Of a stretch of DNA of 64,000 bases, positions 6,612 through 63,365 are shown one piece after another. Source of the stretch: a plasmid. A program made the position numbers and the translations under genes. The stretch is taken from the sequence record NZ_CP027239.1; one strand, 5' to 3'. Each line of letters opens with the position of its first letter. Positions within the stretch are counted from its first letter, which is position 1. The notes under the pieces were generated by a model that did no database searches, had not been told where the DNA came from, and worked only from the letters and a program-made list of their open reading frames with translations.

Positions 6612-6692
6612 GGCGGGCGGCTGGCGCTGTCCGGCCAGGTCGAAGCACGGCCGGTCCCGCCGAAGGGAGGGGCAAGCGAGCGGTCGGCGGCA

Positions 6693-6701
6693 CTGCTGCA
6701 C
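6693..6701 (+). promoter_or_regulatory. STGCTGCAC promoter-like motif copy
   Basis: GCTGTCCGG 76 bp upstream, ACGCTG second block, ATG 60 bp downstream. Confidence 0.6.
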
Positions 6702-6760
6702 CCGCGGCAACGGCGGAGACGCTGACGGGGCAGTACCCACCCCGCTCGAGAGGAACCGCC

Positions 6761-7123
6761 ATGCACGATGACACCTCCACCCCTGATCCCCGCCCGCTCG
6801 CCGGTGCCGCCCTGGTCCTGCTCGGCGACGCCGTGCCACAGGAGACGGTCCGGCAGTGGTGGCAGGCCGCCCGCCACGTCTCCCGGCAGACGGTGGCCAG
6901 CGGCCAGCCCAGCCCCGCCCAGCAGGACGGGCAGGTGTGCATGACTGCGTTCCTGGGCGAGGTGCACCGACTGCTCGGGGAGGACGACGTGGCCCGCGAC
7001 GCGGCGATCAGCGCAGCGGCCTCGCAGGCCGACCTGATGGCCTTCCTTGCCACAAAGGAGCCGATCATGCGGGCCGCGATGCCCGACTACCTGCCGATCC
7101 TGCAGGGCTACCTGAACCCGTGA
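6761..7123 (+). CDS. hypothetical protein (120 aa)
   Basis: Motif 60 bp upstream; RBS gagagga. Confidence 0.5.
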   Translation: MHDDTSTPDPRPLAGAALVLLGDAVPQETVRQWWQAARHVSRQTVASGQPSPAQQDGQVCMTAFLGEVHRLLGEDDVARDAAISAAASQADLMAFLATKEPIMRAAMPDYLPILQGYLNP

Positions 7124-7310
7124 GCCTGGCACTGGGTGGGGCCACGGGCCTCGCCCAGCGCCTGCCGTCCCGGGCCCGCGCTGTCCGGGGGTCGGCAGGC
7201 CAGCCGCGACCTGCGGTGAGAGTCGCAGCCGTCGACGACTGCTGCACCTGGCGGACGAGAAGGGAGCGTCTTGGGCAGCGACGAACCCCGACAAGCCCAG
7301 GAGCAGACCG

Positions 7311-7820
7311 ATGGCACACACCACGTTCCCCGCGATCTTCCGCGACACAGCCCTGCTGACCCCCGCCCCCGCGCACGCTGACAGTGAGGTGATCGGCGTG
7401 GACCCGCAGACCGGCTACCACGTCCTGTGCGACGGGCACTTCGATCCGGACACCGTCCCCGCTGAGGTGCGGGCGGCTAAGGCCAGCGACTTCGCGGACT
7501 ACCTCAACCTGCTGGCCCGCCGACTGCGTGCCCGCATCCACGACACCCGGTCGGCCTCGTGGGAGGGCGACTGCGAGGTGCTGGCGGCCCGAAACCTGAT
7601 CGAGGAGTTCGCCGGCTACATCTACCGTCGCGACCTGCGCGAGGCCGAAGCCCTGCAGGCCGAGCTGATCACGCAGCGGGAGGACCGGCTGGCCGGCAGG
7701 CCCCTGCCGGAGTGGCGCAACAACGGGCCGGCCCGCCCGGCGATCCGTCGTGCCGCCGCCCTGGCGGGCATCTACCGGCGTCAGGCTGCCGCGCTGGCCC
7801 CGGCCACGGCCGCTGCCTGA
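7311..7820 (+). CDS. hypothetical protein (169 aa)
   Basis: Motif 64 bp upstream; RBS aggag. Confidence 0.5.
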   Translation: MAHTTFPAIFRDTALLTPAPAHADSEVIGVDPQTGYHVLCDGHFDPDTVPAEVRAAKASDFADYLNLLARRLRARIHDTRSASWEGDCEVLAARNLIEEFAGYIYRRDLREAEALQAELITQREDRLAGRPLPEWRNNGPARPAIRRAAALAGIYRRQAAALAPATAAA

Positions 7821-7856
7821 ACGCCCCCAGCGACGACCATTCGACGAGGAGAGACG

Positions 7857-8216
7857 ATGAAACCGATCGACGCCACGAACTGCTTGACTCTCGACGACCT
7901 GCGCCCCATGGCGCTGGAGGAGTCCGCCGACGACCCCGACCATCTGAGCGCCGTCATCCGGTACACGCCGGGGGAGTGGGACGCCACGATGGGCAGGCTC
8001 ATCGAGGCCACCATGCGTGACTTTCTGGAGGACGCCCCGATGCGTGTCACGGTGGAGTACCTGACACCCGACGAAGGGGACTGGATGCGCCTGACCGGCG
8101 AACTCGTCGCACTCACCGCAGGCGGCGACGCCGTGTTCCTCGGAGGTGACCGCGGCCAGAAGCCGACCCAACGCAAGACCGTCCCGCTTGAGGACATCTA
8201 CACCCTCGCGTTCTGA
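7857..8216 (+). CDS. hypothetical protein (119 aa)
   Basis: RBS gaggagag; tightly follows previous gene. Confidence 0.5.
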   Translation: MKPIDATNCLTLDDLRPMALEESADDPDHLSAVIRYTPGEWDATMGRLIEATMRDFLEDAPMRVTVEYLTPDEGDWMRLTGELVALTAGGDAVFLGGDRGQKPTQRKTVPLEDIYTLAF

Positions 8217-8626
8217 GGGGGCGCTGCTATCCGCTGGGCCGGGGCGGTCCGCACCGGTGGGGCACTGCTGGTTGGTGGTGCGCTTGAACGTAGCCTCCTG
8301 GCCCCTCCTCGCGAAGTGGAGTCGTGCGCTTGCCCGGGCAGGAAGTCCTACGTTCGCGTGAAGAACTAGACAGGTCGTCCACACCGCCGCGGGCTAACCA
8401 AGCCGCGCTGTCCGCAGTTCAGCTGGGACACGCGCCCTCCGCCCAATCGCGAGGCGATCATTGCTCCCGCAGGCGGCGCTACCCGCACGTCGTTGATTCC
8501 GAACCTTTCCCCGGCCTGCGCACGGCTGCTGTGGTTGCCGCCGGACTCGGTGAGGGTGCTGCACCGTCAAAGCTCAGGGGCACAGTGGGCTGATCGGAAA
8601 CACAGCCCGCGTCGAGGAGGCCCCTG

Positions 8627-9073
8627 ATGAGCACTCAGCACACCATGGAGGAGCGCATGAACGCACTGTTCGGCGAACCGGTCGACCTGCCCACCGTTGA
8701 CGAGCTCGTCGCTTCCGGAGACCTCGTCGATGCGACTGGCTCCTACGCTGCCGGCAACGCCAGCGACCCCGACCGGCAGGCTCGGCTGCTGTTCAGCGCA
8801 GCCGCCTGGGACGACCTCGCCGCCTGGGACGAGAGGAACGCCGCCTACCAGGATGTTTCGGGTCGAATCCACGACGTGGTGACCGCTAGCAGGTTCTGGC
8901 ACCCGCTGACCGGACGGTGCAACTCCCGCATGCTCGGCGAACGCACCGTGTTCTCCCTGACTCGGATCCCGAACACGCCCAGGGCGACGATCCCGCGACA
9001 CACCAACGCCACCATCTACCCCGCCATCGACAACGGGCGGCTCACGCTCACCTTTCGACTGGCCTACGAGTAG
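8627..9073 (+). CDS. hypothetical protein, paralog family 2 (with 10261..10707)
   Basis: GDLVDATGSYAAG...RLLFSAAAWDDLAAWDERNAAYQDVSGRI vs GDLVDATAIYAVS...RLLFTRQAWYDVAAWDEHNTAHQSVAGRI; motif 63 bp upstream; RBS gaggagg. Confidence 0.6.
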   Translation: MSTQHTMEERMNALFGEPVDLPTVDELVASGDLVDATGSYAAGNASDPDRQARLLFSAAAWDDLAAWDERNAAYQDVSGRIHDVVTASRFWHPLTGRCNSRMLGERTVFSLTRIPNTPRATIPRHTNATIYPAIDNGRLTLTFRLAYE

Positions 9074-9130
9074 CCCCGGGCCGCAGGCGATCGCCGCAGC
9101 CGACAAGCGGCGAGGCTATACCGGTCCTCG

Positions 9131-10033
9131 TTGTTCGACCCGCCAACTGTCGACTTTGTCAGCGCCAGGGCTGGCTACAGTTCGGCTATGGCACCGCGTC
9201 GCAGCTCCGAGGAGTCCCCACTGCAAAAGAACGGGGAGTGGCTGGCGCGACTCAATCGGTTGTCGCCCGCTGTCGATACCTGGCACAAGCGGTCCAAGAA
9301 CCCGCAGCCACCCGATCCGGGAAGCTCGCTCGCAGCCGACTCGATGGCGGGGCTCAACGTGGACAACCCAGTCTGGTACTCGATGTGCGTCTCTTCCGAG
9401 CATCTCCACTTCTCGCTCGAGGCAATGCGAGCAACCGGGACGTTGTATCCGACCGCCTACATCACGGTCGCCCGGACGGCGCTCGTCGCTGCCGTGAACG
9501 CTGTCTGGGTACTTGCGCCCCGGACCCGGCAGGAGCGTCGCGAGCGCGCGCTCACGCTTCGCGCCGAAGACCTTCGCTCCCAGATAACGGCCATTGGCAA
9601 CTTGCCAGCCGTTGACAGTGAATCCGAGGAGGTACAGCAGAAGCTCCTGGAGCAGCTGCGCGAGCGGCAATCTGGCCTGCAGGCGACCGCAGTCGCGCTG
9701 GGGATCGAGAGAGACGTGGAAAATCTCCGGCTGAATCAGACCGAAGCGATCAAATGGGTAGCTCGGAGCGTGCCCGATCTCGACGATGACCTTCTAGCTT
9801 CTGGGGTGCAGGCGATCTGGCGTTCAGGGAGCGCAGCCGCACACGCCCAGTACCACTACGGGGTGATGCGGGCCGCCAAGGATGAGACCGTGCCCGAACA
9901 GTCGGGAAGCTCAATCGTGAGGCTCAGCGGAGACCTCGACAAAGACATTGGCCCAGCCTTGGCCGCGGCAGCAATGGTTCTCAACGAGGCGTTTCGACTG
10001 TTCGACCTCCGGCGCGTTGCGCATCTGTCGTAG
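9131..10033 (+). CDS. hypothetical protein (300 aa) in locally lower-GC DNA; possible HEPN-like Rx6H motif (WRSGSAAAH)
   Basis: Long ORF with acceptable GC3 but lower GC than flanks; no upstream motif; sits between the two family-2 paralogs. Confidence 0.45.
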   Translation: MFDPPTVDFVSARAGYSSAMAPRRSSEESPLQKNGEWLARLNRLSPAVDTWHKRSKNPQPPDPGSSLAADSMAGLNVDNPVWYSMCVSSEHLHFSLEAMRATGTLYPTAYITVARTALVAAVNAVWVLAPRTRQERRERALTLRAEDLRSQITAIGNLPAVDSESEEVQQKLLEQLRERQSGLQATAVALGIERDVENLRLNQTEAIKWVARSVPDLDDDLLASGVQAIWRSGSAAAHAQYHYGVMRAAKDETVPEQSGSSIVRLSGDLDKDIGPALAAAAMVLNEAFRLFDLRRVAHLS

Positions 10034-10260
10034 CTGAGCGCTGCGCGCACGGTACGGGCGGCTGTCCGCCGCTCGCTGCGCAACATCTGCAGGGTCGACG
10101 ACATCGCCGATGGGGCGTCCGCCATCTTCGAGCCGGCGCTTCGCGGCTGTCCGCGCCGACTGCCCCACCACCTGCCGGTCCTTCCCTCGGCGCTGCTGCA
10201 CTCTGCGCGGCGGGAGGCAGGGTGATCGAACCCGATACCCCGTGACCGAGGAGCGAAGAG

Positions 10261-10707
10261 ATGACCCCACTGCTGTACCGCGATCACCGCGTCAACGTGA
10301 GCGACCTGGCAGCCGATGCCGCAGGGCTCGGCGACTTGGTGAACGCCGGAGACCTGGTCGATGCCACTGCCATCTACGCCGTCAGCGTGGGCGCAAACCC
10401 GCACGAGCTGCCGCGGCTGCTGTTCACCCGCCAGGCTTGGTACGACGTCGCCGCGTGGGATGAACACAACACCGCCCACCAGAGCGTCGCCGGCCGCATC
10501 TGCAAGGTCCTGGCCGCCGCCGAAGCCCTCGACACAGCAACCGGACACCCGACCCCAGTGCGGGCGGGGCAGCGTCGTCGAGTGTGGGTTGCGCGGATCC
10601 CCAACGCGCGGATGGCGTCGATGGCCGCTGCCACCAACGTCGACCTGGTCGAACTCCCCGACGGTCACCGAACCGCACTGCTGTTCTGCGCCACCTACGA
10701 GCCCTGA
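10261..10707 (+). CDS. hypothetical protein, paralog family 2
   Basis: See 8627..9073; motif 60 bp upstream; RBS gaggag. Confidence 0.6.
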   Translation: MTPLLYRDHRVNVSDLAADAAGLGDLVNAGDLVDATAIYAVSVGANPHELPRLLFTRQAWYDVAAWDEHNTAHQSVAGRICKVLAAAEALDTATGHPTPVRAGQRRRVWVARIPNARMASMAAATNVDLVELPDGHRTALLFCATYEP

Positions 10708-10778
10708 CCGCCAGGAACCCGGGCCCCGTCGCTGACAACGCGCAGCCCTGACCACCCCCGACCACATAGGAGGCCCCA

Positions 10779-11078
10779 ATGCCTCGGAAACTCACTACTG
10801 ACCAGCTGGAATGGCTCAGCGACAAGTGCGATGACCTCGACCTGAACCTGCGCACCGACTACGAAGGGCGCGGCCACTACGAATCCCCGGGCGTGGGCAT
10901 CGTCTGCCAGTCGCACGAGCTGGGCCTCGCGGCCCTGCTGATGGCGGCGACACTCAGCCAGGACAGCACCGGCATGGACTGGGATGACGTGCTCCACGAG
11001 CTCGACAATGCGCCCGCCCCGTCGATCGACTCGCTCGGGCTGTCTTCCATCGCCTACTGGCCCGGCCTCTCAGCCTGA
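10779..11078 (+). CDS. hypothetical protein (99 aa)
   Basis: RBS aggagg directly upstream. Confidence 0.5.
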   Translation: MPRKLTTDQLEWLSDKCDDLDLNLRTDYEGRGHYESPGVGIVCQSHELGLAALLMAATLSQDSTGMDWDDVLHELDNAPAPSIDSLGLSSIAYWPGLSA

Positions 11079-11209
11079 CCTCGACCGTCCCGGCCCAGAC
11101 GGGCCTGAAAGGAACCACCGATGACGAACTGGCTTGCCGCCATCGCTCACCTGCCCACCTGGAGCGGCTGGGGCACCCTCTTCCGCACCGCCCGCGACGG
11201 GGCAGCCTG

Positions 11210-11461
11210 GTGACCGCGATGCTCAGTCCCGCCCGCCATGCGAGGGCTGCCGACGTCGCAGCTGACCGTGCAGAGAACGCCGCCTACCGGAGCGACCAGG
11301 CCGAAGCCGACCGGCAGGCAGGTCTCGCCCGCCAGCACGCCGACCAGGCCGGGGCGCTGGCCGCCCGGCACCCCGGTTCGGCAGCCGACGTGGACGCCAC
11401 CGATGCCGACCGTGCCGCCGAGCGCGCCGAGCGGGAAGCCCGCAGCCTCACCGCTGGCTGA
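11210..11461 (+). CDS. hypothetical Ala/Arg-rich small protein
   Basis: ORF-track frame; preceded by a 30-codon mini-ORF with RBS gaaagg (11121..11213); low-complexity, weak. Confidence 0.3.
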   Translation: MTAMLSPARHARAADVAADRAENAAYRSDQAEADRQAGLARQHADQAGALAARHPGSAADVDATDADRAAERAEREARSLTAG

Positions 11462-11656
11462 ACGGCCCGACCGCGCCCACCCCGAACTCGAGGGGGTGCG
11501 CGCGGTGCCGCGGCGAACGCTCGCCCTGTCCGGCCCCAGCGCAGCACCGGCCAGCGGCAAGGCGGACCCGCACAGCCTCACCAGCGGCAGCTGCTGCACC
11601 CGCGAAACCGGGGGAGAGGCTCAGTGCATCCCGCAGACCCACCCCAGGAGGCCCCG

Positions 11657-12415
11657 ATGAGCGCCACAACACTGACTCAGCTGCTGACCCGCACAAAGGC
11701 CGGGCACGACTGTTACCTCGACGCTGCCCGCCTGGCCTCAGACGGTGACCTGGCCGCCGCCGCGGTGATGGCCCGCTACAGCGTGGACGCCTACGCCGAT
11801 GCCGCTGAGATCACAGCAGGCCTCGACGGCGGCAACATCGGCCGGCCCCGCATCTACGTCGCCTGTGCCGAGAAGTCCGCCGCCGTGGCCGCGATGATGG
11901 CTCAGCTGGCCACCCTCGCCGGTAGCGACTCCCTCAAGGACGCGGCCGTCTCGGCAGAGTTCGCGGCCCGCGCGGTGCGCCGCGCCCGCATCGCCGTGAA
12001 TCCGCGACTGGACGACAACGACCTCTCCGACGCCGGCCTCGCCGCAGCCAACGAGATCGCGGAAGCGTTCGCCGCGGTCAGCCAGTTGGCCGACGAGGCG
12101 GTAGCCCACGCAGATGACGCCGCACGGTATGCCGACGAGTGCGAGAACACGCAGGTGGCGCAGGACGCACAAGACGTGGCCTCGCAGGCGCGAGCCGCCG
12201 CGGTGAAGGCGGTGCGAGCGGCCGGGGTGGCGATGTCGTTGGCTCCCGGCGCCTACTCGACGGGGGCGACCGCAGCCCCCGACCGCGCCGACTTCGCCGT
12301 CACGGCGGCGACCGTTGCCGACCGTGCCGCCACCAAGGCAGAGCGGCACGCCGAGCAGAAGACGGCCAGTGAGGCTGTGACGTCCCTGCGCAGCCGCATC
12401 GCCGACCCCCGCTGA
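11657..12415 (+). CDS. hypothetical Ala-rich protein (252 aa)
   Basis: Motif 58 bp upstream; RBS aggagg. Confidence 0.5.
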   Translation: MSATTLTQLLTRTKAGHDCYLDAARLASDGDLAAAAVMARYSVDAYADAAEITAGLDGGNIGRPRIYVACAEKSAAVAAMMAQLATLAGSDSLKDAAVSAEFAARAVRRARIAVNPRLDDNDLSDAGLAAANEIAEAFAAVSQLADEAVAHADDAARYADECENTQVAQDAQDVASQARAAAVKAVRAAGVAMSLAPGAYSTGATAAPDRADFAVTAATVADRAATKAERHAEQKTASEAVTSLRSRIADPR

Positions 12416-12495
12416 CCCCTGCACTCCACGCGCACCGCAAGCGAGATCACCCGCCTGCGATGCACCTATGACTCGATCTGACGAAAGGCTCTGCC

Positions 12496-13080
12496 ATGTT
12501 CTCTCTCAAGGCATCGCCGATGGCCGATGCGATGCTCACCCGGGCATTGTGGAAGCCAGCGCCCGCAACCGACCTGGACGCCTACGCCGCGGTCCTCCAC
12601 ACCGTCGACGACGCCGCCGCATGGGAATGGAACGGCATCCCCGCGCACGTCGAACCGTTCTTCCAGTCGGGCGACGACACCCCCGATGCCCTGTTCGTCT
12701 CCGCCCGGTTCGGGGCGCTGGCCGCATCGCTGATGGTTGAGCTCGACACCGAACAGTTGGCCCGGGCTGACACCTGGGGTGGAGTACTCGAGATGGTCAC
12801 CGACGACCTCAACGATGCCCACGCGAGCCTGCTCAGGAGCTTCCCGCCAGCACCACCGCGGGCCGACGGGCTGGGGCAGCGACTGGTGAACCGCGACAGC
12901 ATCCGCGCCGAGATCGACGACAACCCGAACCTGACAGAGAGCCAGCGACTGAGGCTGATGGCAGCCCTTGACAGTGAGATCGACGACGCGATCGAGGCGT
13001 GCACCCGCAGTGTCGAAGATCAGCTGTACGCCGTGCACGACGAGTTGCAGGCACTGGTCGTCGCCGACCTGACCAGCTGA
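12496..13080 (+). CDS. hypothetical protein; C-terminus paralogous to 32612..32899
   Basis: Shares DNPNLT..QR..L and HDELQALVV blocks; hairpin terminator after stop. Confidence 0.55.
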   Translation: MFSLKASPMADAMLTRALWKPAPATDLDAYAAVLHTVDDAAAWEWNGIPAHVEPFFQSGDDTPDALFVSARFGALAASLMVELDTEQLARADTWGGVLEMVTDDLNDAHASLLRSFPPAPPRADGLGQRLVNRDSIRAEIDDNPNLTESQRLRLMAALDSEIDDAIEACTRSVEDQLYAVHDELQALVVADLTS

Positions 13081-13087
13081 CCACTCC

Positions 13088-13128
13088 CACCCCGCCGGTC
13101 GCCTTGGCCGCCGGGGTGGGTTCCGGCC
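13088..13128 (+). terminator. GC-rich hairpin (cccaccccg...cggggtggg)
   Basis: 9-bp outer stem with inner pairing, just after stop 13080. Confidence 0.35.
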
Positions 13129-13188
13129 TGCCAGGGGATAGGGCTGTCCGCCGCCGGTGGCGATCATGGGCGGCCTAATCTCCACGAC

Positions 13189-13758
13189 ATGACACTTCGC
13201 GGGGTGGTTGCCGTTCTCATGGTCTCGGCCATGGGCCTAGCCGGGTGCGGGGAAGACTGGTCGGCCGAACCTGAACCGCCCACCGAGGCAGAACTCGTCG
13301 TAGAACGTGCCCAACAGCGACAGCAGCAACTCGACGCCGAGCTCGAACGGTGGCGGGAACTCGACTTGGACGACCATATCGTCGCGCCGATGGGCGAACC
13401 GATCTCCGATCACGTCCTCACCACGTCGCTTGGCGAGCTCTACATCGACGGCTTCGGACTCTGCACCGATGTGACGATCACCAACAGCGGCACCCTGCCG
13501 AGGAAAGTGGGAGCGAGAGATTGGACCACCACCTACCCGAGCGGCTTCACCAGCCAAGGCCGCATTGTCAAAGGCGACGTCTCCGGCCGCAGCCATTGGT
13601 ATCGGCGAGGCTTGATCATCGTGCAACCCGGTGAAACCCGGACCATGCAGATCTGCCTTGGTGGCGCCGACGAACGCGAGGGCATCAAACCGGGCCTGTA
13701 CAAGATCAAGTTCACTCCAGCGCTGATGCAAACCCACGTCTGGCTAACCGTGATCTAA
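13189..13758 (+). CDS. secreted lipoprotein
   Basis: N-terminal signal peptide with lipobox LAGC (MTLRGVVAVLMVSAMGLAGCGEDW). Confidence 0.6.
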   Translation: MTLRGVVAVLMVSAMGLAGCGEDWSAEPEPPTEAELVVERAQQRQQQLDAELERWRELDLDDHIVAPMGEPISDHVLTTSLGELYIDGFGLCTDVTITNSGTLPRKVGARDWTTTYPSGFTSQGRIVKGDVSGRSHWYRRGLIIVQPGETRTMQICLGGADEREGIKPGLYKIKFTPALMQTHVWLTVI

Positions 13759-13955
13759 CTCTGGCGCTGCAGTTCGCCGGTTAGGTTCCGGCTTCTCAGG
13801 GGAGCTGTCCGCTGATTCGCCTGGTCTCGGCACTGATGGTGGCGTGATGGTCTGCTGCACCGGCGGGGTGGGATCACACGGCCCTGCTAACCCAAAAACT
13901 ACCTTTACAGATGTAGAGGCGGGCAGTTAGCCACCCACTCGATAGGAGCAAGACC

Positions 13956-56224: not shown

Positions 56225-56333
56225 CCGGAGGTGCCCGGCGATCGTGCCGCCCACTGCGCAGGCCTCCGTGCTGCACCCCGGACCGCCGCGAGAACACTGA
56301 TCACCACACCGCCACCAGACCGAGGAGCACCCG

Positions 56334-56765
56334 ATGAGCGCCACCCGAACCATCACCGCCGCCGAACTCCGCCCGGGCGACACGTTCGTCAAGGACGATC
56401 AGCGGTTGACCGTCACCGACCAGGTCGCCCCGTCTGACACCTGGGCCGGTTTCACCCGCGTCGGCCTCGACTACGGAGTGCTCTACATCCTCTCCGACGC
56501 GCAGGTCACCGTCGTCGCCAGCACCGACGACGCGTGGGCGGACGTGACAGTCGGCCCCAACGGTTCAGTCGCCGACGAGACCAACGCCCACCACTTCACC
56601 ACCGCCGCCGGGACCCCGATCGCCACCAAGCTGCAGCTGGCCGTTCCCGCCGACCTGACCGCCGAGGACGAGATCGCCGAGTGGGTCGGCCACATCAGCC
56701 AGCGCATCATCACCGCCGGCGGGCCCGGCACCACCTTGACCGTGCACGTCGGAGACGGGCAGTGA
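56334..56765 (+). CDS. hypothetical protein (143 aa)
   Basis: Motif 58 bp upstream; RBS gaggagcacc. Confidence 0.5.
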   Translation: MSATRTITAAELRPGDTFVKDDQRLTVTDQVAPSDTWAGFTRVGLDYGVLYILSDAQVTVVASTDDAWADVTVGPNGSVADETNAHHFTTAAGTPIATKLQLAVPADLTAEDEIAEWVGHISQRIITAGGPGTTLTVHVGDGQ

Positions 56766-57151
56766 CCGCCGCAGACCGGCGCCGGGCGCCGTTCGCCGCG
56801 GTGCGGCCCTGCAAGCACTGCCCGTTTCGCAGCGACATCACCCCGTACCTGAGGCCGGAGCGAGCCCGCGAGATCGCCGATTCTCTCGACCGTGGTGAGG
56901 ACTTTCCCTGCCACCAGACGGTCACGTACGGCGAAGAAGACGGCCTCGAGACCGCTGATACGGGCAATGCCGCCCGCTGCGCCGGCGCCTTGATCATCTG
57001 CGAGAAGACCGACCGTCCCACGCAGGCCATGCGGATCGGTGAACGGCTGGGCCTGTACGACAGGAACGCCCTCGATATGGCCGCCCCGGTCTACGACACC
57101 CTCGCCGACTGGGTGACCGCCCACCAGGCCGCCCGCCACGGTCGGCACTGA
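56762..57151 (+). CDS. hypothetical Cys-containing protein (CKHCPF...C..C)
   Basis: GTGA overlap with previous gene; possible metal-binding cluster. Confidence 0.5.
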   Translation: MTAADRRRAPFAAVRPCKHCPFRSDITPYLRPERAREIADSLDRGEDFPCHQTVTYGEEDGLETADTGNAARCAGALIICEKTDRPTQAMRIGERLGLYDRNALDMAAPVYDTLADWVTAHQAARHGRH

Positions 57152-57361
57152 CTCGACCCGCGCTCGCGCCCCCACCAGCACGGGAAGATCCTGGCTGGGT
57201 GCACGGTGGCCTCGGCCCGACGGCGGCCTTGTCTTCCGGTCGGGCTGTCCGGCACGGCATTAGGCAGCCCCCGGGTCACAGCGCCGCACGCTGCTGCAGT
57301 CCCCAACAGGCGCGGGAAGGTGAGGGCATCAACCCACCCCGACCCGCTGAGGGAGCACACC

Positions 57362-57751
57362 ATGGCACTCGAGCCGCTGACCCCGACTGACCGAATCGTC
57401 AACGTCTACCTGAACGTCGCTCGCGACAGCCTGGGGCGACCCGCCGCACTGTTCGACGGGTACAAGGCCGGCGACCCCCTGCGCCACTGCTTCCGGCTCC
57501 CCCTCGTCGGCGCGGAGCTGCGCCTGTCGCCCACTGCGCTCGCGGAGAAGGTGTACCACCTGCTCAACGTCGGTGATGACCCCATGCTCGGTACGCCCGA
57601 CGAGCGGGCGGTGGCTTACCGACTCGCCAACTACCGATCCCTGAGCGTGGGCGACGTTCTCGAGATCGACGGCGAGCATCTGGCCGTGGCTTCCATGGGG
57701 TTCGTCTCCGTCGACGCCCCGGCGCGGGAGGCGATCTCGACGCCGTGGTGA
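57362..57751 (+). CDS. hypothetical protein (129 aa)
   Basis: CTGCTGCAG variant motif 63 bp upstream; RBS gagggagcac. Confidence 0.5.
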   Translation: MALEPLTPTDRIVNVYLNVARDSLGRPAALFDGYKAGDPLRHCFRLPLVGAELRLSPTALAEKVYHLLNVGDDPMLGTPDERAVAYRLANYRSLSVGDVLEIDGEHLAVASMGFVSVDAPAREAISTPW

Positions 57752-58101
57752 CCCAGGTGTGCGGGGCGATCATGGACTGGAAACCGGCCCTGACCCCAGT
57801 CCAGGCACGGCCCGGCAGATAGCAGGGCGCCCGCGAGCCAGGGACGGGCCACCCTGTGGCTGCGCTGTCCACGCTCCACCTCCGAGTCGCCGCCGCACGG
57901 TGGGGGAGGTTCGGGCCAGTTCGACGCGATCCCGTGGTTCGGCCCCGTCCGTTCCAAGGTCCGGCCCGGGTTGACGCCCGCGCGACACGCCGAGGAACCG
58001 CGCGGACCAGCGAAATTGGAAATGCGAAATACTAAATCCCCGGGTCGGGCTCTCCCGCTGCGTAGCGTCACTCTCGCACGCTGCCAGAGGAGGAGTGAGC
58101 G

Positions 58102-58404
58102 ATGGACACCCAGCACACCACCGGTGCTCGAGGAACCACCTCGAAGCGAAGGGTCGGCCGTCCGAGCAAGGGCGTCTACAAGCCGTACAGCATCAAGGCG
58201 CGGATCGACATCGCCAACGAGCTGGAGGCACTGGCCGGCAACGGGATCACTCGTACCGACCTCTTCGAGGCGGCAGCTGCGATGGCCCTCCGTGACAAGG
58301 AGGCGCTACTGGCTGAGGTCGAGGCGCAGCGCGAGATTGCGGCGCGGCACCGGCTGGAGATCGGCCTACCTCCGACGAAGGGGGACCGGAATGTAGCCGC
58401 CTGA
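58102..58404 (+). CDS. small DNA-binding protein (AT-hook GRPSKG + helical/RHH-like)
   Basis: RBS gaggagg; upstream AT-rich region with GCGAAAT x2; positioned immediately before the rep gene. Confidence 0.55.
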   Translation: MDTQHTTGARGTTSKRRVGRPSKGVYKPYSIKARIDIANELEALAGNGITRTDLFEAAAAMALRDKEALLAEVEAQREIAARHRLEIGLPPTKGDRNVAA

Positions 58405-58410
58405 ACGCGC

Positions 58411-58740
58411 CTATTCGACGCCGGTCAGCGCACTGGCCCGACCACCAATCGGGCCGCTCCCAGCTGATCGAACCGAAGTCGAAGCACCGCGGCCACCGCG
58501 TTGTTCACCACACAACGTGCGACCCTGCAGGCGAGACGAAGGAAACGGCGACCACCTAGAACTTCCCACTGCAGGCCACCAACCTGCAGAAAAAGAAGAA
58601 CCCGCCCCTGACGGGGACGGGAACTTCAGAAACCAGAAGCGGAAGATTCTCTCGGTTACCAGCCGATCCCGGTTACCAGCCGGGTTCCTCCGAACGCCAT
58701 CCAGATCGCTCGTTGCCGACCAAAGCAATGAGGTCCTTTT
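58411..58740. promoter_or_regulatory. candidate replication origin / iteron region
   Basis: Locally reduced GC; direct repeat GGTTACCAGCCG x2; CTGCAGG x3; aaaaagaag A-tract; lies at the 5' end of or upstream of the prim-pol gene. Confidence 0.4.
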
Positions 58741-60700
58741 GTCGTACGACGACGACTATACAGCGCTGCCCCCTACCCATCTACCGGACGACACGCCGAG
58801 CAATGCTGGGCTGACCTGGGAAATACTCCGCGATAGCTGGAGCCCTCGGACCCACATCCGGGTCGACCGCGACGGTGACAACGCCGTCTACGTCGACGTG
58901 CCCGCCGGCCGAACCCGCCCGGCGAAGCCGCACGCGCTGTACCTCGCCGACGAACAGCAGCGATTCCGCCTGCTCGGCTTCGACTTCGACGCCCACCGGG
59001 ACGGACTGTTTCCGCAGGTAGATGCCGCAGCCTTGCAGGCAGTCCTCACCGCCGCCCACATCCCGCACCTGGCGTGCGTCTCCGGGCCCGGCGGCGGCGT
59101 CCACGTGTGGGTGCGCCTGTCCGCCCCCACGCCTGCCTCCGCGGTCCGTCGCCTCGCCCGCCAGCTGGACGCCGTCTACCCGTCGTTCGACCCCACCCCG
59201 CTGCTCAACGCCGCCACCGGCTGTCTTCGAGCTCCTGGGTCTCCGCACCGCCGAGGCGGCCACTCCGCCCCACAGGGCAATCCCCGGATCCTGCCCGTGG
59301 CTTTCCCCGATGTCGTGCGAGCCCTGGCTGGTCTGCGCCCCGCTGCGGGCACCTCGGCCGGCAGCCCGCGGGCCGAGCGGCGCCAGCCGATCGACACCAC
59401 CGCCTGGGGCACCCCGCATCTTCGCGGGATCCGGCGGCCGTTGCCGGCGCAGTTCCGCGCTCTCGCCCGCAAACCCGTCGCCCTGGCCGCCGATGCCTCT
59501 GCCATCGGCTGGTCCCTGCTGTTGGCCTGCGCGCACGCCCGTTTCACCCAGGAGGACGTCCACCACGCCGCCTTCGTCGAGCAGTGGCCTGGCCTGGAGT
59601 ACCTGCGCACCGTCCGTCAGGCCGACCATCGCTCTCCCCGGCCCAGGAAGGAGCAGTTTCTCGAGCAGCAGTGGCATCGCGCCGTCGACAGCGCAGCTGC
59701 GATCCCTGCACCACCAGAGGATGCCGGCAGCGCCAAGTGGCAGGCCTCCGCTGAGCGTGTCGCCGCGTTCCAGCAGGAGTGCGACCGCACGCCCAACCGG
59801 TGGCACGGGTGCACCGGCGTCGTCGACAGGCTCCTGCTCGACGCCCTGTGCTGGCACATCGCTCGAGCGGCGACCACAACGGTGCACCTGTCCGAGAGGG
59901 CGTGGGCGCTGACCGCAGGCCTCGACAGATCCACCGTCAACCGTCGCATCAAGACCTTGCTCGCCGAGGGCTGGATCGTGCGCGTCAAGGACGCCGCCGG
60001 ACCGTGGGCGGCGCAGTGGGCGTTAAGAGAAGGGGGCGGGAAATCAGGTAGTGGCCCAAATTCGGTAGAGGTGATCGACTCTCTCGCCGAGAAACTGCGA
60101 TCCGCTCGTCACGACGTCTGGTGCGCCCCCGGCTGGGGCCAGACCGCGTGGGCGGTGTGGCGGGCCATCAGCGATGGCGTCCGCGGGCTCCGCCAGATCC
60201 GCGCCGCGACAGGACTGGGCGTGAGCACCATCGCCAGCAAACTCGCGGCCCTGCGCGGTGCCGGCCTCATCGACCGAACAGGGCGACGCGCCTATAGCGG
60301 CCGCAGTCGTCTGGCCACGGCCGCCGAGCACCTCGGAATCCGTGGCGCCCACGCGGACAAGGAACGCCTATACGCACTGCATAGCGCCACATTCGTGTGG
60401 TGGCTCACCGACCGTCTCCGCGACCAGCTGTCCGGCCCCAGCGACGCCCTGGCCGAGTGGGGCATGTTCCCCGACGACCACGTTGCCGCCAGTACCGACC
60501 CCCGGGACGTTGCGATGGTCTACGGGGCAGTCTCCGCGGGCACACCGCCGCAGGTCACCGCCTGGTCAGCCGCGATGGTTTTGCAGGAACTCCACCGCCA
60601 CCGAGACCCCCGCTACTGGCGCGAGCTCGTCGCCGACGCCCGCACCGCGCTGCCCGCGGCGGAGATGTACGGGCCGGCGGTCCTACATCTGGCTGCCTAG
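58517..60700 (+). CDS. replication protein with bifunctional primase-polymerase (AEP/prim-pol) N-terminal domain
   Basis: AEP motifs LGFDFDAH (DxD), VSGPGGGVHVWVRL (sGxGxH), LRAPGSPHRRGG (R-PGS-H); C-terminal wHTH-like region; true start probably downstream of 58517 (5' part overlaps iteron-like DNA). Confidence 0.7.
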   Translation: MRPCRRDEGNGDHLELPTAGHQPAEKEEPAPDGDGNFRNQKRKILSVTSRSRLPAGFLRTPSRSLVADQSNEVLLSYDDDYTALPPTHLPDDTPSNAGLTWEILRDSWSPRTHIRVDRDGDNAVYVDVPAGRTRPAKPHALYLADEQQRFRLLGFDFDAHRDGLFPQVDAAALQAVLTAAHIPHLACVSGPGGGVHVWVRLSAPTPASAVRRLARQLDAVYPSFDPTPLLNAATGCLRAPGSPHRRGGHSAPQGNPRILPVAFPDVVRALAGLRPAAGTSAGSPRAERRQPIDTTAWGTPHLRGIRRPLPAQFRALARKPVALAADASAIGWSLLLACAHARFTQEDVHHAAFVEQWPGLEYLRTVRQADHRSPRPRKEQFLEQQWHRAVDSAAAIPAPPEDAGSAKWQASAERVAAFQQECDRTPNRWHGCTGVVDRLLLDALCWHIARAATTTVHLSERAWALTAGLDRSTVNRRIKTLLAEGWIVRVKDAAGPWAAQWALREGGGKSGSGPNSVEVIDSLAEKLRSARHDVWCAPGWGQTAWAVWRAISDGVRGLRQIRAATGLGVSTIASKLAALRGAGLIDRTGRRAYSGRSRLATAAEHLGIRGAHADKERLYALHSATFVWWLTDRLRDQLSGPSDALAEWGMFPDDHVAASTDPRDVAMVYGAVSAGTPPQVTAWSAAMVLQELHRHRDPRYWRELVADARTALPAAEMYGPAVLHLAA

Positions 60701-60726
60701 CGGCCTCCTGCCCGCTCTCGCGCACG

Positions 60727-60765
60727 CGTTTGCACGTAGGTACAATGGACGTGCAAGCAAGGAGG
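60727..60765 (+). promoter_or_regulatory. promoter with palindromic operator TTGCACGT-N11-ACGTGCAA containing TACAAT
   Basis: Perfect 8-bp inverted repeat flanking a -10-like hexamer, 10 bp before the RBS of the antitoxin gene. Confidence 0.55.
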
Positions 60766-60770
60766 TTCCG

Positions 60771-61610
60771 ATGTCTGAACCAGCGAAGGCTCCCAGTTCC
60801 GCACGCGTCGTAAGCAGGCCTCGCGGTAGACGCCGTGAGAACCCCGAGGGAGCGGCCATCTCGATCGACGATGCCGCCAAGCGGAACTTGAAGCTGCATC
60901 TCGTCGCCGCCTCGGGTGAGACGATCACGGCTTCGGGAAGCTCAGACCTGCTGACGGTGTCGGCCCGCACCTTCAAGCGAAAGGCCCCCACCACAGCACC
61001 CAAGGCCGGGCCACGCGACCAAGTGGCGCAGGCCGTTCTGGACCTCCTGGCCGACGTCGGGATCCCTGCCGAGGAGGGGCCCCGCCTGATTGATCACGTC
61101 CGAGACCTGCTCCGCTCGACCACTTCGTCGCAGTCCACCCCCGTCAGCCAGGCCGACGTGAACTACCTACGTCAGCACGCAGGTCTGGACGACCCGTCGG
61201 TCATCGACGACTGGAACCCCCAGTCCGAAGACCAGCTACGGGCAGAAGTCGCCGTGGCTAACGCCACGACGTTCATGATGGGCACCCTCAGCCGAGAGGA
61301 AGCCGCACAGCTGCTCAACAGGGACGAATCCGTGGTGTCGAGGCGAGTCAGCAACGGGCAACTCCTCGCGGTCTACAGAGATGGGCGCCCGCGCTTCCCG
61401 CGGTGGCAATTCCACAACGGGCAGGCCCTGCCCGGACTGCCCGCGGTGATCGACGCGCTGTCGACGCTGGGCATGGACACCGTGGCCGTAAGTAGCTTCA
61501 TGGTCCGCCCCAACGACGAGCTAGACGGACTACCGCCCGTCGACTACCTCGTCGGCGGAGGCGACCCAGAGGCTGTAGTGGCTCTTCTCGAGAGCATGGC
61601 GCGCAGTTGA
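60771..61610 (+). CDS. Xre/ParS/MbcA-type antitoxin (HTH + C-terminal RES-toxin-binding domain)
   Basis: RBS aaggagg; HTH LSREEAAQLLNRDESVVSRRVSNGQLLAV; C-terminal block FMVRPNDELDGLPPVDYLVGGGDPEAVVALLES (DUF2384-like). Confidence 0.7.
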   Translation: MSEPAKAPSSARVVSRPRGRRRENPEGAAISIDDAAKRNLKLHLVAASGETITASGSSDLLTVSARTFKRKAPTTAPKAGPRDQVAQAVLDLLADVGIPAEEGPRLIDHVRDLLRSTTSSQSTPVSQADVNYLRQHAGLDDPSVIDDWNPQSEDQLRAEVAVANATTFMMGTLSREEAAQLLNRDESVVSRRVSNGQLLAVYRDGRPRFPRWQFHNGQALPGLPAVIDALSTLGMDTVAVSSFMVRPNDELDGLPPVDYLVGGGDPEAVVALLESMARS

Positions 61611-62251
61611 GCGGTCGGCCCAAGGCTCCGAGGACCCCACGAAGGCCCTTGGAGTGGGATGACACTGACATCGTCACGGTCAATCCCGGTACTGCGCTGT
61701 GGCGGATTCACAGGACTCGCGGTCCGTTCCCGAGCGCCTGGAGCGACTACCGCTTCTACGGGCCACTGCCGGGGATGCGGTGGGACCCCCACCCTGCGCC
61801 GACCGCAGCCCACACCGACTGCGCCGTCCTCTACACCGCCTACGACCTGCCCACCTGCATCGCGGAGGTCTCTCATCCCGCCGGCCTAGTCGACACCGTG
61901 ACGGCTAGCCCGTTCGCGACGTCCTGGTCCCCGACCAGGCCCCTGCGCCTACTCGATCTCACACGGCAGTGGCCGCTTCGGATGGACGCCACGCACGCCC
62001 TGATGTTCGCTCCCCGATCGACGTGCAGGAACTGGGCGCACGAGATCTGGAAGACCGCGCGCAGCGAGGGCAAGCAACTGGACGGACTCGAGGTGCAGTC
62101 GACGGTGACGGGCTCCAACATGGCCGTGCTGTTCTCTGACAGTCAAAACGCCCTTCCCGCCGCCCCGGCATTCACCTCCCCCCTCTCCGGGCCGATGGTC
62201 TTCACCATCGCGGCGAACCTCGCCGCCAGAGTGCAGTGGCCCATCATCTGA
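61607..62251 (+). CDS. RES-domain toxin (ParT/MbcT-like NAD+-consuming toxin)
   Basis: Start overlaps antitoxin stop; RES-family blocks LWRIHRTRGPF, GMRWDP (Arg), AVLYTAYDLPTCIAEVSHP (Glu), downstream conserved Ser. Confidence 0.7.
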   Translation: MSGRPKAPRTPRRPLEWDDTDIVTVNPGTALWRIHRTRGPFPSAWSDYRFYGPLPGMRWDPHPAPTAAHTDCAVLYTAYDLPTCIAEVSHPAGLVDTVTASPFATSWSPTRPLRLLDLTRQWPLRMDATHALMFAPRSTCRNWAHEIWKTARSEGKQLDGLEVQSTVTGSNMAVLFSDSQNALPAAPAFTSPLSGPMVFTIAANLAARVQWPII

Positions 62252-62291
62252 GTCGCCGTCGTCGTCCTCGCGGGCCGGATGACCTCTCAGG

Positions 62292-62564
62292 ATGAGCCGC
62301 CGACGCTACAGACGAGACACCCCCGTCGCGCCGCCCCTTTTTCCGTGGGCCCGACTAACGTCGCGGGCCATGAGCGCCGTGGAAGACCGCCCCAACTACT
62401 GCCCGAACGGACATCCCTTCGGGCCGGACAAAGTCCTGGTCGGGTGGCGCCCTCCGCCGGTGGGCCAGGTCGGACGCGGTTCCCGCACCTACGAGTGCCT
62501 GCAGTGCGGGGCCATCATGGACTGGAAACCCACCCTGACGCCCGCCAGCGGCCCCCACAGGTAG
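62292..62564 (+). CDS. hypothetical zinc-ribbon protein (C..H...C..C)
   Basis: YCPNGH...ECLQCG pattern; start uncertain (62292 or ~62370). Confidence 0.35.
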   Translation: MSRRRYRRDTPVAPPLFPWARLTSRAMSAVEDRPNYCPNGHPFGPDKVLVGWRPPPVGQVGRGSRTYECLQCGAIMDWKPTLTPASGPHR

Positions 62565-62750
62565 CGGTCGGGGGCGACTGCGACGCTGTCCGCACCACAT
62601 CCCGCCGAGCTCTCACCCGCCACCGGCCCGCATGCTGCTGCACCTTCCGGCCCTGCGCCGATAGTTGAGCCGTCCCACCGCCTCGGCCGGGAGCGGCTCC
62701 ACGAAGCCGCCCTGAGGACGAGCGGAACGCCCGACCGAAGGGAGCCCTCG

Positions 62751-63221
62751 ATGCTTCTGCGCGACATGCTCGACAAGTACGCCAACCTGCAGCGCCAACG
62801 CCAGCAGGAATCTGACGCCATCGAATCCGGCGAGCACGGCAGTTACGAGCTGTACGACGAGCTCGAAGACAACATCGCCGAGCTGTTCATCGACAACGCG
62901 CCCGCGCTGACTGCGCTGCTCGCCCGGCTCGACGCGCTGACCGCCGCGGTCACCGCCTACGACACGGCCACCGAGGCTGGAGACAACGACGACAGCCACG
63001 ACGAGGCGATCCGGGTGGCCGCCCGCGAGGTGATGGAGCAGGCGCGCGGCGCGGGCGGTGAGCACAGCGGGCCTGACTACGCCGATCTGCGCCAGGCGCA
63101 CACGGCAGCGTTGCGGGCCGTCGACGGCGACAGCAACGACGACGAGATCGCCGCCTGGCGTGAGACCGCGGAACTGGCGACGGCGTACCTGCCCGGCTAC
63201 CAGGACCCGACCATCGACTGA
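62751..63221 (+). CDS. hypothetical acidic protein (156 aa)
   Basis: Motif ~108 bp upstream; RBS gaagggagcc; hairpin follows stop. Confidence 0.5.
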   Translation: MLLRDMLDKYANLQRQRQQESDAIESGEHGSYELYDELEDNIAELFIDNAPALTALLARLDALTAAVTAYDTATEAGDNDDSHDEAIRVAAREVMEQARGAGGEHSGPDYADLRQAHTAALRAVDGDSNDDEIAAWRETAELATAYLPGYQDPTID

Positions 63222-63232
63222 CCACCACCACC

Positions 63233-63262
63233 TGACCCCGGTCCGAGCAACGGGCGGGGTCA
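63233..63262 (+). terminator. hairpin tgaccccgg-N12-ccggggtca (approx.)
   Basis: 8-9-bp stem after stop 63221. Confidence 0.35.
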
Positions 63263-63365
63263 GCTGGTCTCCGCTGAACGGCAGCGCCGCTGTCCGGCCC
63301 GGATCGCGCGCCTTCATCCGGCCGACGCCCGGCACCCACCCACGACGAACGGGTTCGACGGCGCG

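Follow-up and report, generated by a model that had tools for sequence, protein, structure and literature searches.

What is the function of a short sequence word that recurs, always in the same orientation, in the spaces between the genes of a mobile element? The question is raised by a 64,000-nucleotide (nt) stretch of sequence record NZ_CP027239.1, referred to here in its full length as the window, in which an array of mostly small genes is punctuated by the octamer GCTGTCCG. An earlier note on this DNA had placed the octamer downstream of the terminator hairpin of the preceding gene and upstream of a promoter-like block (STGCTGCAC), at a variable spacing of 45 to 150 nt, and had offered three interpretations: an operator or activator site for a second regulator, a transcriptional roadblock, or a relic of the recombination junctions that built the array. 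The roadblock is now the best supported of the three, the operator or activator site stays a live rival, and the recombination relic is unsupported. The reading that we prefer, with a probability of about 0.4, is that GCTGTCCG is a stoperator-like polar boundary site for a putative element-encoded protein, which would halt read-through polymerase and insulate the next promoter.

There are 31 exact copies of GCTGTCCG in the window, all on the + strand, compared to 6.3 expected over both strands. Nineteen of them lie in the 10.7 kilobases (kb) of intergenic DNA, far above the 0.43 expected from a first-order Markov model (Poisson P≈6e-25), and the − strand of the same intergenic DNA has none. 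The word is sharp, all-or-none and asymmetric; it has no dyad symmetry, and its flanks are uninformative beyond their GC content. Forms with one mismatch occur at background levels (14 on the + strand versus 14 on the − strand, with a slight excess at positions 1 and 8), and one-mismatch “variants” are without support as a class. The earlier note had listed 20 positions, each of which has a GCTGTCCG-type word on the + strand within ≤9 nt; these include all of the exact intergenic sites itemized below except 5512 and 32074, which were missed along with 12 coding copies. Its three variants, CCTGTCCA at 17020, CCTGTCCG at 18253 and GCTGTCGG at ~43082, are present as words; the last is just 15 nt from a promoter box and therefore a doubtful site, probably none at all.

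Of the 12 coding copies, 11 fall within genes of the + strand, mostly in the frame xxG-CTG-TCC-Gxx, which reads Leu-Ser. A synonymous-codon shuffle yields 3.3 copies in these genes, and the complement of GCTGTCCG occurs there 0 times versus 2.6 expected (5.8 for the 7-mer); in − strand genes, the 7-mer form favors the + strand of the window by 6 to 2. This coding enrichment first suggested a replicon-wide polar signal, before the host background was considered. In 42.5 kb of Dietzia chromosome, GCTGTCCG occurs 10 times, in both orientations, with 9 of the copies coding, or ~1.2 per 10 kb per strand. Because the chromosome has a similar coding density in both orientations, the coding excess in the window is mostly host Leu-Ser codon context.

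The intergenic signal, by contrast with the coding one, belongs to the element. In an unbiased ranking of intergenic 8-mers in the window, TGCTGCAC, the box of the promoters described below, comes first and GCTGTCCG second. Relatives were recognized by homologues of a 424-amino-acid (aa) protein of the array, found in Dietzia maris (87%), Dietzia sp. 179-F (68%) and a Gordonia metagenome-assembled genome (MAG; 65%), with more distant homologues in Prescottella and Nocardia (~40%); these homologues also identify the host as Dietzia. In D. maris and Dietzia sp. 179-F the same two words again take the first two ranks among intergenic 8-mers, in either order, and GCTGTCCG ranks first in the Gordonia MAG. 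Both words end at the junction between element and chromosome, and host intergenic DNA has 1 copy of GCTGTCCG in 4.7 kb and is otherwise free of both. A scan of genome and viral contigs for GCTGTCCG-N39-69-CTGCTGCAC gave, among the matches listed, only single chance ones in unrelated phyla, and a literature search on either motif or on promoters of Dietzia elements found nothing relevant. The possibility that GCTGTCCG is itself the −35 or −10 element of a second promoter was rejected, since it has no conserved partner box at any spacing.

Comparison of the relatives shows that the word is retained where its surroundings are not. In a three-species alignment of one orthologous gap, GGCTGTCCG forms an invariant island; a conserved hairpin stands on one side of it and a conserved promoter block on the other, separated from it by spacers that vary or have undergone deletion. 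Another orthologous gap shows turnover, with one site decayed and a new module of hairpin and site gained upstream. Alignment blocks among relatives often end at or near the 8-mer, one of them spanning site 13805 to site 14293; the synteny breakpoints lie in the spacers and not inside the 8-mer. Where two modules are fused in contig L004 of Dietzia sp. 179-F, each 8-mer keeps its own flanks and the junction falls between them. GCTGTCCG is under purifying selection as an isolated island and is a selected, element-specific signal.

A distant relative, Prescottella equi contig L007, lacks both motifs and uses another intergenic grammar. It has conserved palindromic hairpins of the form CACCCCTCCCC-N17-GGGGAGGGGTG (e.g., at 6328-6367, 8705-8744, 11393-11432, and 20960-20999), the 3' arm of which lies ~19-20 nt upstream of sigma-A-like promoters (TTGACG…TAGTGT…CATCACA). 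The half-sites flip with gene orientation. This contig serves as an analogy only.

The partner of the octamer, TGCTGCAC, is the −35-like box of promoters that all face one way. The 35 non-redundant intergenic copies of the box read sTGCTGCACc, followed after 17 nt by an A and then by a T four bases on; that A and that T are each present in 33 of the 35, usually as gAnnGT, and a CA start-like dinucleotide appears ~6-7 nt beyond. The actinobacterial −10 element is TANNNT, and the A and T of gAnnGT match its two key bases. We found no sigma-70-type promoter in 20 kb, and no full promoter of the sTGCTGCACc type in the host chromosome loci examined. The motif is a promoter of one non-sigma-70 type, as predicted from its sequence. 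The full copies in the window are the following.

2731..63396, all on the + strand: 28 full promoters of the form TGCTGCA[C/G]-N17-A-N3-T, e.g., those with boxes at 5574, 6694, 7240, 10194, and 33941.

A box is found downstream of 15 of the 19 exact sites. The co-occurrence reported in the earlier note is borne out statistically: 14 of the 28 full promoters have an exact GCTGTCCG 40-165 nt upstream, versus 6% expected (P = 1.5e-10), and 23 of the 28 have a near-site. The distance from 8-mer to box ranges from 46 to 160 nt and is never <46. Its standard deviation (SD) is 28. The earlier view that the two are not parts of one rigid bipartite site is correct. The distances cluster at 46-50, 55-61, and 64-72 (near 47, 58, and 69), with a Rayleigh peak at 11-11.5 base pairs (bp). 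Corrected for the scan, the phasing gives p = 0.008 for the pooled sites, 0.019 for the 14 exact sites of the window, and 0.039 for 20 pairs from relatives, but 0.23 once the variant sites of the window are added; an 11-bp phasing of 8-mer and promoter is suggestive only.

The tighter relation is to the hairpin on the other side. The recurrent order of a gap is stop codon, GC-rich hairpin, ~22 nt, GCTGTCCG, 46-160 nt, promoter box, leader, and gene. Compact, near-perfect stems were used to define hairpin ends, since ends based on minimum free energy are blurred by weak outer pairs. A compact hairpin lies ≤80 nt upstream in 33 of 50 non-redundant sites and downstream in 9 of the 50, and upstream flanks fold more stably (−28.6 versus −21.1 kcal/mol for downstream flanks; p = 7e-5). 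For stems of at least 11 bp, the gap between stem and 8-mer has a median of 22 nt, falls between 17 and 26 nt in 15 of 25 cases, and has an SD of 8, compared to the 28 of the promoter distance. A length-matched null gave the 8-mer a random position within the room left between each hairpin and the 46-bp zone that precedes the promoter. The observed 14 of 18 sites at 17-26 nt were reached in fewer than 1 of 20,000 such trials (P<5e-5), and an unbiased scan statistic agrees. Because this null is beaten, we conclude that the 8-mer is anchored to the upstream hairpin, and that the variable length falls between the 8-mer and the promoter.

The hairpins themselves are short (9-20 bp), sequence-variable and unrelated to the 8-mer, and contain neither promoter box nor motif. 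A scan for a canonical hairpin and T-run (≥5 T in 8 nt) passes just 2 hairpins in 20 kb; the T content of the 9 nt after the stems is 25%, versus 11% in the rest of the spacer. They are predicted to be weak, U-poor terminators. Purified mycobacterial polymerase does not terminate at hairpins without U-tracts, even with NusA and NusG (PMC3993855). The 8-mer has no preferred paired or unpaired state (0.37 versus 0.36), and no Rfam family matches in the window.

The individual sites are listed below, where gap is the number of nt from hairpin end to 8-mer, distance is that from 8-mer to promoter box, and g numbers are predicted genes.

5512..5519, + strand: exact GCTGTCCG between g8 and g9; hairpin 5464-5490 (12 bp), gap 21; box 5574, distance 62.
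6626..6633, + strand: exact GCTGTCCG between g10 and g11; hairpin 6587-6607, gap 18; box 6694, distance 68.
7180..7187, + strand: exact GCTGTCCG between g11 and g12; hairpin 7128-7162 (15 bp), gap 17; box 7240, distance 60.
8407..8414, + strand: exact GCTGTCCG between g13 and g14; no compact hairpin; box 8557, distance 150.
10061..10068, + strand: exact GCTGTCCG, first of two between g15 and g16, 28 nt past the stop codon; box 10194, distance 133.
10146..10153, + strand: exact GCTGTCCG, second of two between g15 and g16; box 10194, distance 48.
13143..13150, + strand: exact GCTGTCCG between g20 and g21; hairpin 13086-13120 (15 bp), gap 22; no promoter box.
13804..13811, + strand: exact GCTGTCCG between g21 and g22; box 13853, distance 49; the block common with L004 starts exactly here.
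14292..14299, + strand: exact GCTGTCCG between g22 and g23; hairpin 14247-14270 and then TTTCCGTTCT, gap 21; box 14429, distance 137.
19357..19364, + strand: exact GCTGTCCG in the divergent gap between g32 (−) and g33; no hairpin; box 19416, distance 59.
21315..21322, + strand: exact GCTGTCCG between g34 and g35; box 21420, distance 105; present also in the orthologous D. maris and Gordonia gaps.
24006..24013, + strand: exact GCTGTCCG between g39 and g40; hairpin 23937-23983 (19 bp), gap 22; promoter downstream not of the box type; an invariant island in three-species alignment A2.
32074..32081, + strand: exact GCTGTCCG in the convergent gap between g49 and g50 (−); hairpin 32018-32061 (20 bp), gap 12; no box within 170 nt.
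33869..33876, + strand: exact GCTGTCCG between g52 and g53; hairpin 33808-33844 (13 bp), gap 24; box 33941, distance 72.
34687..34694, + strand: exact GCTGTCCG between g53 and g54 (−); hairpin 34616-34652 (15 bp), gap 34; one-mismatch box TGCTGTAC downstream.
55678..55685, + strand: exact GCTGTCCG between g78 and g79; box 55749, distance 71.
57244..57251, + strand: exact GCTGTCCG between g81 and g82; box variant CTGCTGCAG at 57292, distance 48.
62585..62592, + strand: exact GCTGTCCG between g87 and g88; box 62636, distance 51.
63289..63296, + strand: exact GCTGTCCG between g88 and g89; hairpin 63232-63263 (11 bp), gap 25; box 63367, distance 78.
4028..4035, + strand: possible variant ACTGTCCG; hairpin 3964-4008 (17 bp), gap 19; box 4077, distance 49.
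17020..17027, + strand: uncertain variant CCTGTCCA, two mismatches; no hairpin; box 17085, distance 65.
18253..18260, + strand: possible variant CCTGTCCG in a divergent gap; box 18322, distance 69.
21971..21978, + strand: possible but uncertain variant TCTGTCCA, two mismatches; hairpin 21913-21947 (13 bp), gap 23; box 22081, distance 110.
23158..23165, + strand: possible variant CCTGTCCG; hairpin 23102-23131 (13 bp), gap 26; box variant at 23231, distance 73.
54362..54369, + strand: possible variant GCTGTCCA in the divergent gap between g76 (−) and g77; box 54434, distance 72.

Among the possible variants, that at 4028 has the geometry of the exact sites, and variants at position 1 are weakly enriched. 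Three local features of the listed gaps may be added. Segments 13123-13150 and 13785-13811 have ~20 nt of common upstream flank (ggttccggc.t..cagggga.agGCTGTCCGc), a local duplication of a spacer module. The long gap after g34 holds a 23-nt tandem repeat, CCTTCTCGTGGAGGCCGTGCCCA, in 3.6 copies (21176-21257), which sits just upstream of the hairpin and motif at 21315 and is also found in D. maris. Downstream of site 34687 there is, besides the one-mismatch box, a possible small open reading frame (ORF).

How could one word be tied to the end of one gene and kept clear of the promoter of the next? On the boundary-site reading, GCTGTCCG would be bound asymmetrically by a DNA-binding protein, probably element-encoded. 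Each unit would end in a GC-rich hairpin with a poor U-tract, and the 8-mer, oriented as transcription is, would mark the boundary. A polymerase running past the hairpin would meet the bound protein when its active site was ~7-9 nt beyond the stem, the point where a U-tract would normally pause it; the hairpin could then free the transcript. The site would thus insulate the next TGCTGCAC-type promoter, at least 46 bp on, from upstream read-through. The front edge of polymerase lies ~14 bp ahead of the active site in E. coli roadblock experiments. A 22-nt gap would then put the RNA 3' end ~7-9 nt past the stem, the geometry of an intrinsic terminator, with the roadblock replacing the U-tract pause. 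Such a roadblock, one polymerase footprint past U-poor hairpins and strictly oriented, would explain the fixed hairpin spacing, the strict orientation and the clearance before the next promoter, and also the sites that follow + strand genes but have no box (13143, 24006, 32074, and L005:7503). Known cases exist for both parts of the proposal: in phages of the same bacterial order, oriented, asymmetric, multicopy intergenic repressor sites stop elongation (PMC9283540), and DNA-bound proteins cooperate with terminators as roadblocks to delimit transcription units (PMC10310618). We also entertain, tentatively and as distinctly less probable than not, that hairpin, ~22 nt and GCTGTCCG together make up a new class of factor-dependent bacterial terminator, in which a putative site-specific protein supplies the missing U-tract pause.

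Several points weigh against a boundary site of this kind. No binding protein was found: searches of PHROGs, NCBIfam, Pfam (E ≤ 1) and PDB gave just a generic XRE helix-turn-helix (HTH), and nothing resembling a stoperator repressor appeared among the array proteins searched. A gp71-like two-domain repressor (~183 aa, with an HTH and a “stoperator” domain) was likewise not found among the window proteins by PHROGs, NCBIfam and PDB sequence searches and tblastn against phages. The candidate regulators proposed in the earlier note are not supported. The XRE protein (4573-4974) carries an HTH of the generic Cro/C1 type and shows neither a phage homologue nor similarity to the stoperator repressor; the product of the gene at 58102, taken for an RHH protein, matched no family and no structure; and ArsR sits in an inserted cargo block. 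Compact upstream hairpins are missing at 6-9 of the 19 exact sites, and 1 exact and 3 variant sites are in divergent gaps that have no co-directional upstream gene. A pure roadblock needs neither the downstream box seen at 15 of 19 sites nor the weak 11-bp phasing. The host chromosome would, by extrapolation, carry ~500 copies that would titrate a binder, and the footprint arithmetic rests on an E. coli figure, not one for Dietzia.

The main rival takes the promoter, rather than the hairpin, as the partner that matters. GCTGTCCG would serve the TGCTGCAC promoters from upstream, as an operator or activator site at which a putative regulator would contact polymerase or the box factor from whole helical turns upstream, centered near −81, −92, and −103; a regulon of ~28 promoters would be switched jointly, on the model of plasmid “establishment regulons”, and nearness to the hairpin would be secondary. 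The box 46-150 nt downstream of most exact sites, the strong excess of promoters with an upstream site, and distances that never fall below 46, that cluster, and that peak at 11-11.5 bp in two independent subsets (p = 0.019 and 0.039) all favor it, as do divergent gaps in which site and promoter stand without any upstream terminator. The Prescottella relative has its own conserved word ~19-20 nt before each promoter, flipping with gene orientation, and the p576 establishment regulon offers a precedent of one repressor for many variable operons (PMC8708921). The position of the 8-mer, however, is set by the hairpin, and all length variation falls between 8-mer and promoter; the phasing loses significance with the window's variant sites (p = 0.23); 4 exact sites have no downstream box, 1-2 of them in convergent gaps; 5-14 promoters lack a site, depending on how strictly a site is defined; and dimeric activators or repressors of the classical kind do not usually have one lone asymmetric 8-mer as their site. 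We regard this explanation as a possible one, rather unlikely as it stands. By analogy with the L5 repressor, which works at both operators and stoperators, the operator and roadblock readings would not be mutually exclusive.

The remaining explanations would have the 8-mer read as RNA, as a single DNA strand, or as a recombination site. If read-through RNA carries the hairpin, ~22 nt and GCUGUCCG, an RNA-binding protein or nuclease might recognize it and so set the 3' end, stability or processing of each mRNA. The strict sense-strand location, the fixed hairpin distance and the all-or-none specificity over 8 nt, typical of single-strand recognition, fit this, but the 46-bp exclusion zone and weak helical phasing point to duplex DNA, the 8-mer shows no paired or unpaired preference, no Rfam family matches, and some sites are in divergent gaps, where sense transcription should not arrive; we consider it improbable. 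To a similarly small degree we credit a replicon-polar signal for single-strand recognition or translocation (Chi-like, KOPS/TRS-like, or primase-recognition), read on one DNA strand in transfer, replication or repair of the element and independent of transcription. All 31 copies (31/31) are on one strand, the shuffle and complement counts in + strand genes (11 versus 3.3, and 0 versus 2.6 or 5.8) and the 6-to-2 preference of the 7-mer in − strand genes run the same way, and the element encodes an AEP-type primase. No promoter-bearing block on the other strand was seen in the relatives examined, so that gene polarity and replicon polarity are inseparable in this element family. Against this stand the similar coding density of the host chromosome in both orientations, which makes the coding excess mostly codon context, the 40-fold intergenic concentration of functional copies, at one specific point that follows the hairpin and precedes the promoter (a placement that no signal of this type would demand), and the lack of any host-wide intergenic enrichment. 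Least probable is the idea, raised in the earlier note, of a relic (or, in another form, an active core) of cassette-array recombination junctions, like integron attC core sites. Relatives do differ by whole cassettes, with alignment blocks often stopping at or near the 8-mer (13805 to 14293), and a module of hairpin and 8-mer has been gained at one gap and lost at an orthologous position. Yet there are 0 inverted partner copies on the − strand, the breakpoints are in spacers, the fused L004 modules join between intact flanks, and conserved islands anchor alignment ends anyway. Retention of the exact word with one-mismatch forms at background indicates selection for function and not a relic, and there is no integron-type integrase nearby, the sole recombinase being a serine resolvase at 38282 in a separate block.

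GCTGTCCG lies outside every described family tested; the definitions of stoperator, operator, terminator, Chi/KOPS, attC, Frpo, and DnaA box each fail somewhere. Its closest likeness, by analogy, is to a stoperator joined to a weak terminator. Cluster A mycobacteriophages (L5 gp71/TipsytheTRex) have >20 asymmetric, oriented intergenic sites at which a monomeric repressor is proposed to stop elongation (PMC9283540). In that system a reversed site no longer blocks elongation, and the site doubles as an operator that overlaps the early promoter. As with those ~20-30 conserved asymmetric copies spread across a Mycobacteriales mobile element, we find 19 exact and ≤8 near-copies over 64 kb, in short intergenic spaces and oriented with transcription, all 8-mers, all 28 promoters, and ~85% of genes being on the + strand. 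Unlike stoperators, the word is 8 bp rather than a 13-bp GGTGGMTGTCAAG-type consensus, to which it is unrelated except for TGTC; the element is not a phage; no 8-mer overlaps a promoter as an operator, all being at least 46 bp from the box; and the fixed ~22-nt coupling to a hairpin is not described for stoperators.

Terminators and plasmid regulons each share part of the arrangement. As in mycobacterial terminators, the stretch that comes after the GC-rich hairpin is only weakly U-rich, and polymerase needs extra help (PMC3993855), although the known mycobacterial termination helper is NusG, not a site-specific DNA-binding protein. The hairpins differ from canonical intrinsic terminators, which have a 7-9 nt U-tract, in a T fraction of 0.25 over 9 nt and in the 2 that pass in 20 kb. 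We know of no described bacterial terminator class with a conserved DNA word at a fixed distance past the hairpin. The array is like the p576 (EGeRS2) establishment regulon in having one conserved sequence before many variable, mosaic small-gene operons, a layout that in p576 coordinates the control of genes for establishment or anti-defence (PMC8708921), and like establishment regulons in gene content, with DUF3846, an ADP-ribosyltransferase and glycohydrolase, a toxin-antitoxin pair, and ArdC in a relative. It is unlike the p576 type in that no autoregulated repressor gene was identified in the regulon, the gene at 58102 having no RHH support. Operators of the establishment type overlap or abut the promoter and are usually repeated or palindromic, whereas here a single asymmetric 8-mer stands at least 46 bp upstream. 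The KorA/KorB operators of RK2 and the ArdK/StbA operators of R388 are further plasmid regulons for comparison. Class I activator sites of CRP lie at −61.5, −71.5, −82.5, and −92.5; the 8-mer is similarly upstream at variable distances, perhaps stepped by the helical turn, but it is asymmetric, GC-rich and positioned by the hairpin, and the phasing is suggestive only.

Other short words are more distant. The 8-mers of Chi, KOPS and TRS are strand-skewed over a whole replicon, coding or not, and are common to element and host; the excess of GCTGTCCG is intergenic and element-specific, and the host has both orientations. Integron attC sites are imperfect inverted repeats with complementary cores at their two ends, beside an integron integrase; the window has no reverse-complement copy, its hairpins are unrelated to the 8-mer, and family searches of its proteins found no tyrosine integrase. 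In Frpo, single-stranded DNA folds into a long, imperfect hairpin and so re-forms −35 and −10 boxes (PMC11541004); the hairpins here, at 9-20 bp, are variable and without promoter box or 8-mer. Three resemblances were considered and rejected. The actinobacterial DnaA box is TTGTCCACA, a 9-mer ending in a conserved ACA; the common part is just TGTCC, all 19 exact sites have G as their eighth base, and CTGTCCA forms are few. The PafBC/RecA-NDp box, TGTCRGTG-N8-TANNNT, and the MmeI-family target show a partial likeness with no supporting arrangement. An MmeI-family restriction-modification enzyme is encoded at 51486-54293 (−), and the reverse complement of the 8-mer (CGGACAGC) has the general form of an MmeI-family target (…CAG), which is probably coincidence, since the motif is found in relatives in any case.

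The window is 66-72% GC, and a gene caller based on GC3 (third-position GC) predicted 89 genes in it, ~85% of them on the + strand. Most are small and without a family in Pfam, PHROGs or NCBIfam. The recognizable genes, which point to a mobile element, are those for DUF3846, an XRE-type HTH, and DUF2786/DUF7168 proteins; an ADP-ribosyltransferase and its ADP-ribosylglycohydrolase, a serine resolvase, a RES-Xre toxin pair, the MmeI-type enzyme, and an AEP primase fused to a winged helix are also encoded, and an inserted block carries Lsr2, an insertion sequence (IS) element, ArsR, and an ABC transporter. Large plasmids of Rhodococcus and Prescottella are similar to the backbone by tblastn, with proteins ~45% identical. 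The only plasmid relatives found by tblastn were distant ones of Rhodococcus, Prescottella and Mycobacterium (~30-47% identity), too remote for shared motifs, and a megablast of 24 kb against plasmids and phages matched only the common ADP-ribosylglycohydrolase gene.

Sequence on both sides of the window was added by exact-protein look-ups. At its right end the element meets the Dietzia chromosome ~2.2 kb past the end of the window, 76 nt inside a PucR-family gene, and in another Dietzia cinnamea genome the empty site is seen, with aceE running straight into the PucR-family gene. Because of this junction and empty site, we conclude that the window is the interior of an integrated Dietzia island of >75 kb. 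The junction is at L250:~13440 and L253:10001-10077, where D. cinnamea homology starts 76 nt into the PucR-family gene, which is normally fused to the end of aceE.

Several features of the island stand apart from the motif pair. The central block 35000-51500 has no motif pair in its intergenic DNA and resembles inserted cargo interrupting a regulon; it contains the resolvase, Lsr2, an IS4/5-family transposase in two ORFs, a P-loop kinase-like gene, ArsR, a peptide ABC transporter, and a metallophosphatase. Before the resolvase gene (38282), an unusually AT-rich gap of 340 nt holds GGTGACAGAAAC in two tandem copies with a third nearby (38150-38240), and has the look of a site, res or iteron-type, on which the serine resolvase encoded next to it would act. 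A 350-nt gap at 57752-58101, preceding the small gene at 58102 and the gene for the AEP primase with its winged helix, has an AT-rich stretch with GAAAT repeats (gaaattggaaatgcgaaatactaaat) and is a candidate replication origin or promoter region. Several small genes of the array are paralogues or have modules in common (12496-13080 and 32492-32899, 8627-9073 versus 10261-10707, and 5613-6083 versus 6136-6582), with a 70-aa C-terminal domain common to g20 and g51 at 50% identity, which indicates duplication and domain shuffling in the array. A tRNA-Met called by ARAGORN at 4806-4881, inside the XRE gene and overlapping a coding GCTGTCCG copy, is a probable false positive in GC-rich coding DNA, and Rfam has no tRNA there. 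In Dietzia sp. 179-F, a CRISPR array and type I-E cas genes follow the array of motif genes (L004:14142-15401 and 16146-21063), with motif copies in nearby gaps, which suggests that this CRISPR-Cas system is element-borne.

The proteins of this element are nearly all without a known family, yet its regulatory grammar is unusually legible: in ~28 one-gene units, one kind of promoter goes with a weak hairpin and with one oriented 8-mer, whose distance from the hairpin is fixed. If the 8-mer is a polar roadblock, the stoperator principle would extend from phages to integrated plasmid-like elements, and would be tied mechanistically to an old puzzle, that of how high-GC Actinobacteria use U-poor terminators. 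If hairpin and 8-mer form a terminator class of their own, the cell could switch unit boundaries, which would stay open in a naive host and close as the protein builds up, and one element family would offer a testable answer to how U-poor hairpins terminate in Actinobacteria. If the 8-mer is instead an upstream operator, the elements of Dietzia and Gordonia would carry a large establishment or anti-defence regulon, and the motif pair would be a handle for finding its regulator and for recognizing such islands. Either way, the pair is a practical marker that delimits this island family, stopping exactly at the junction of element and chromosome.

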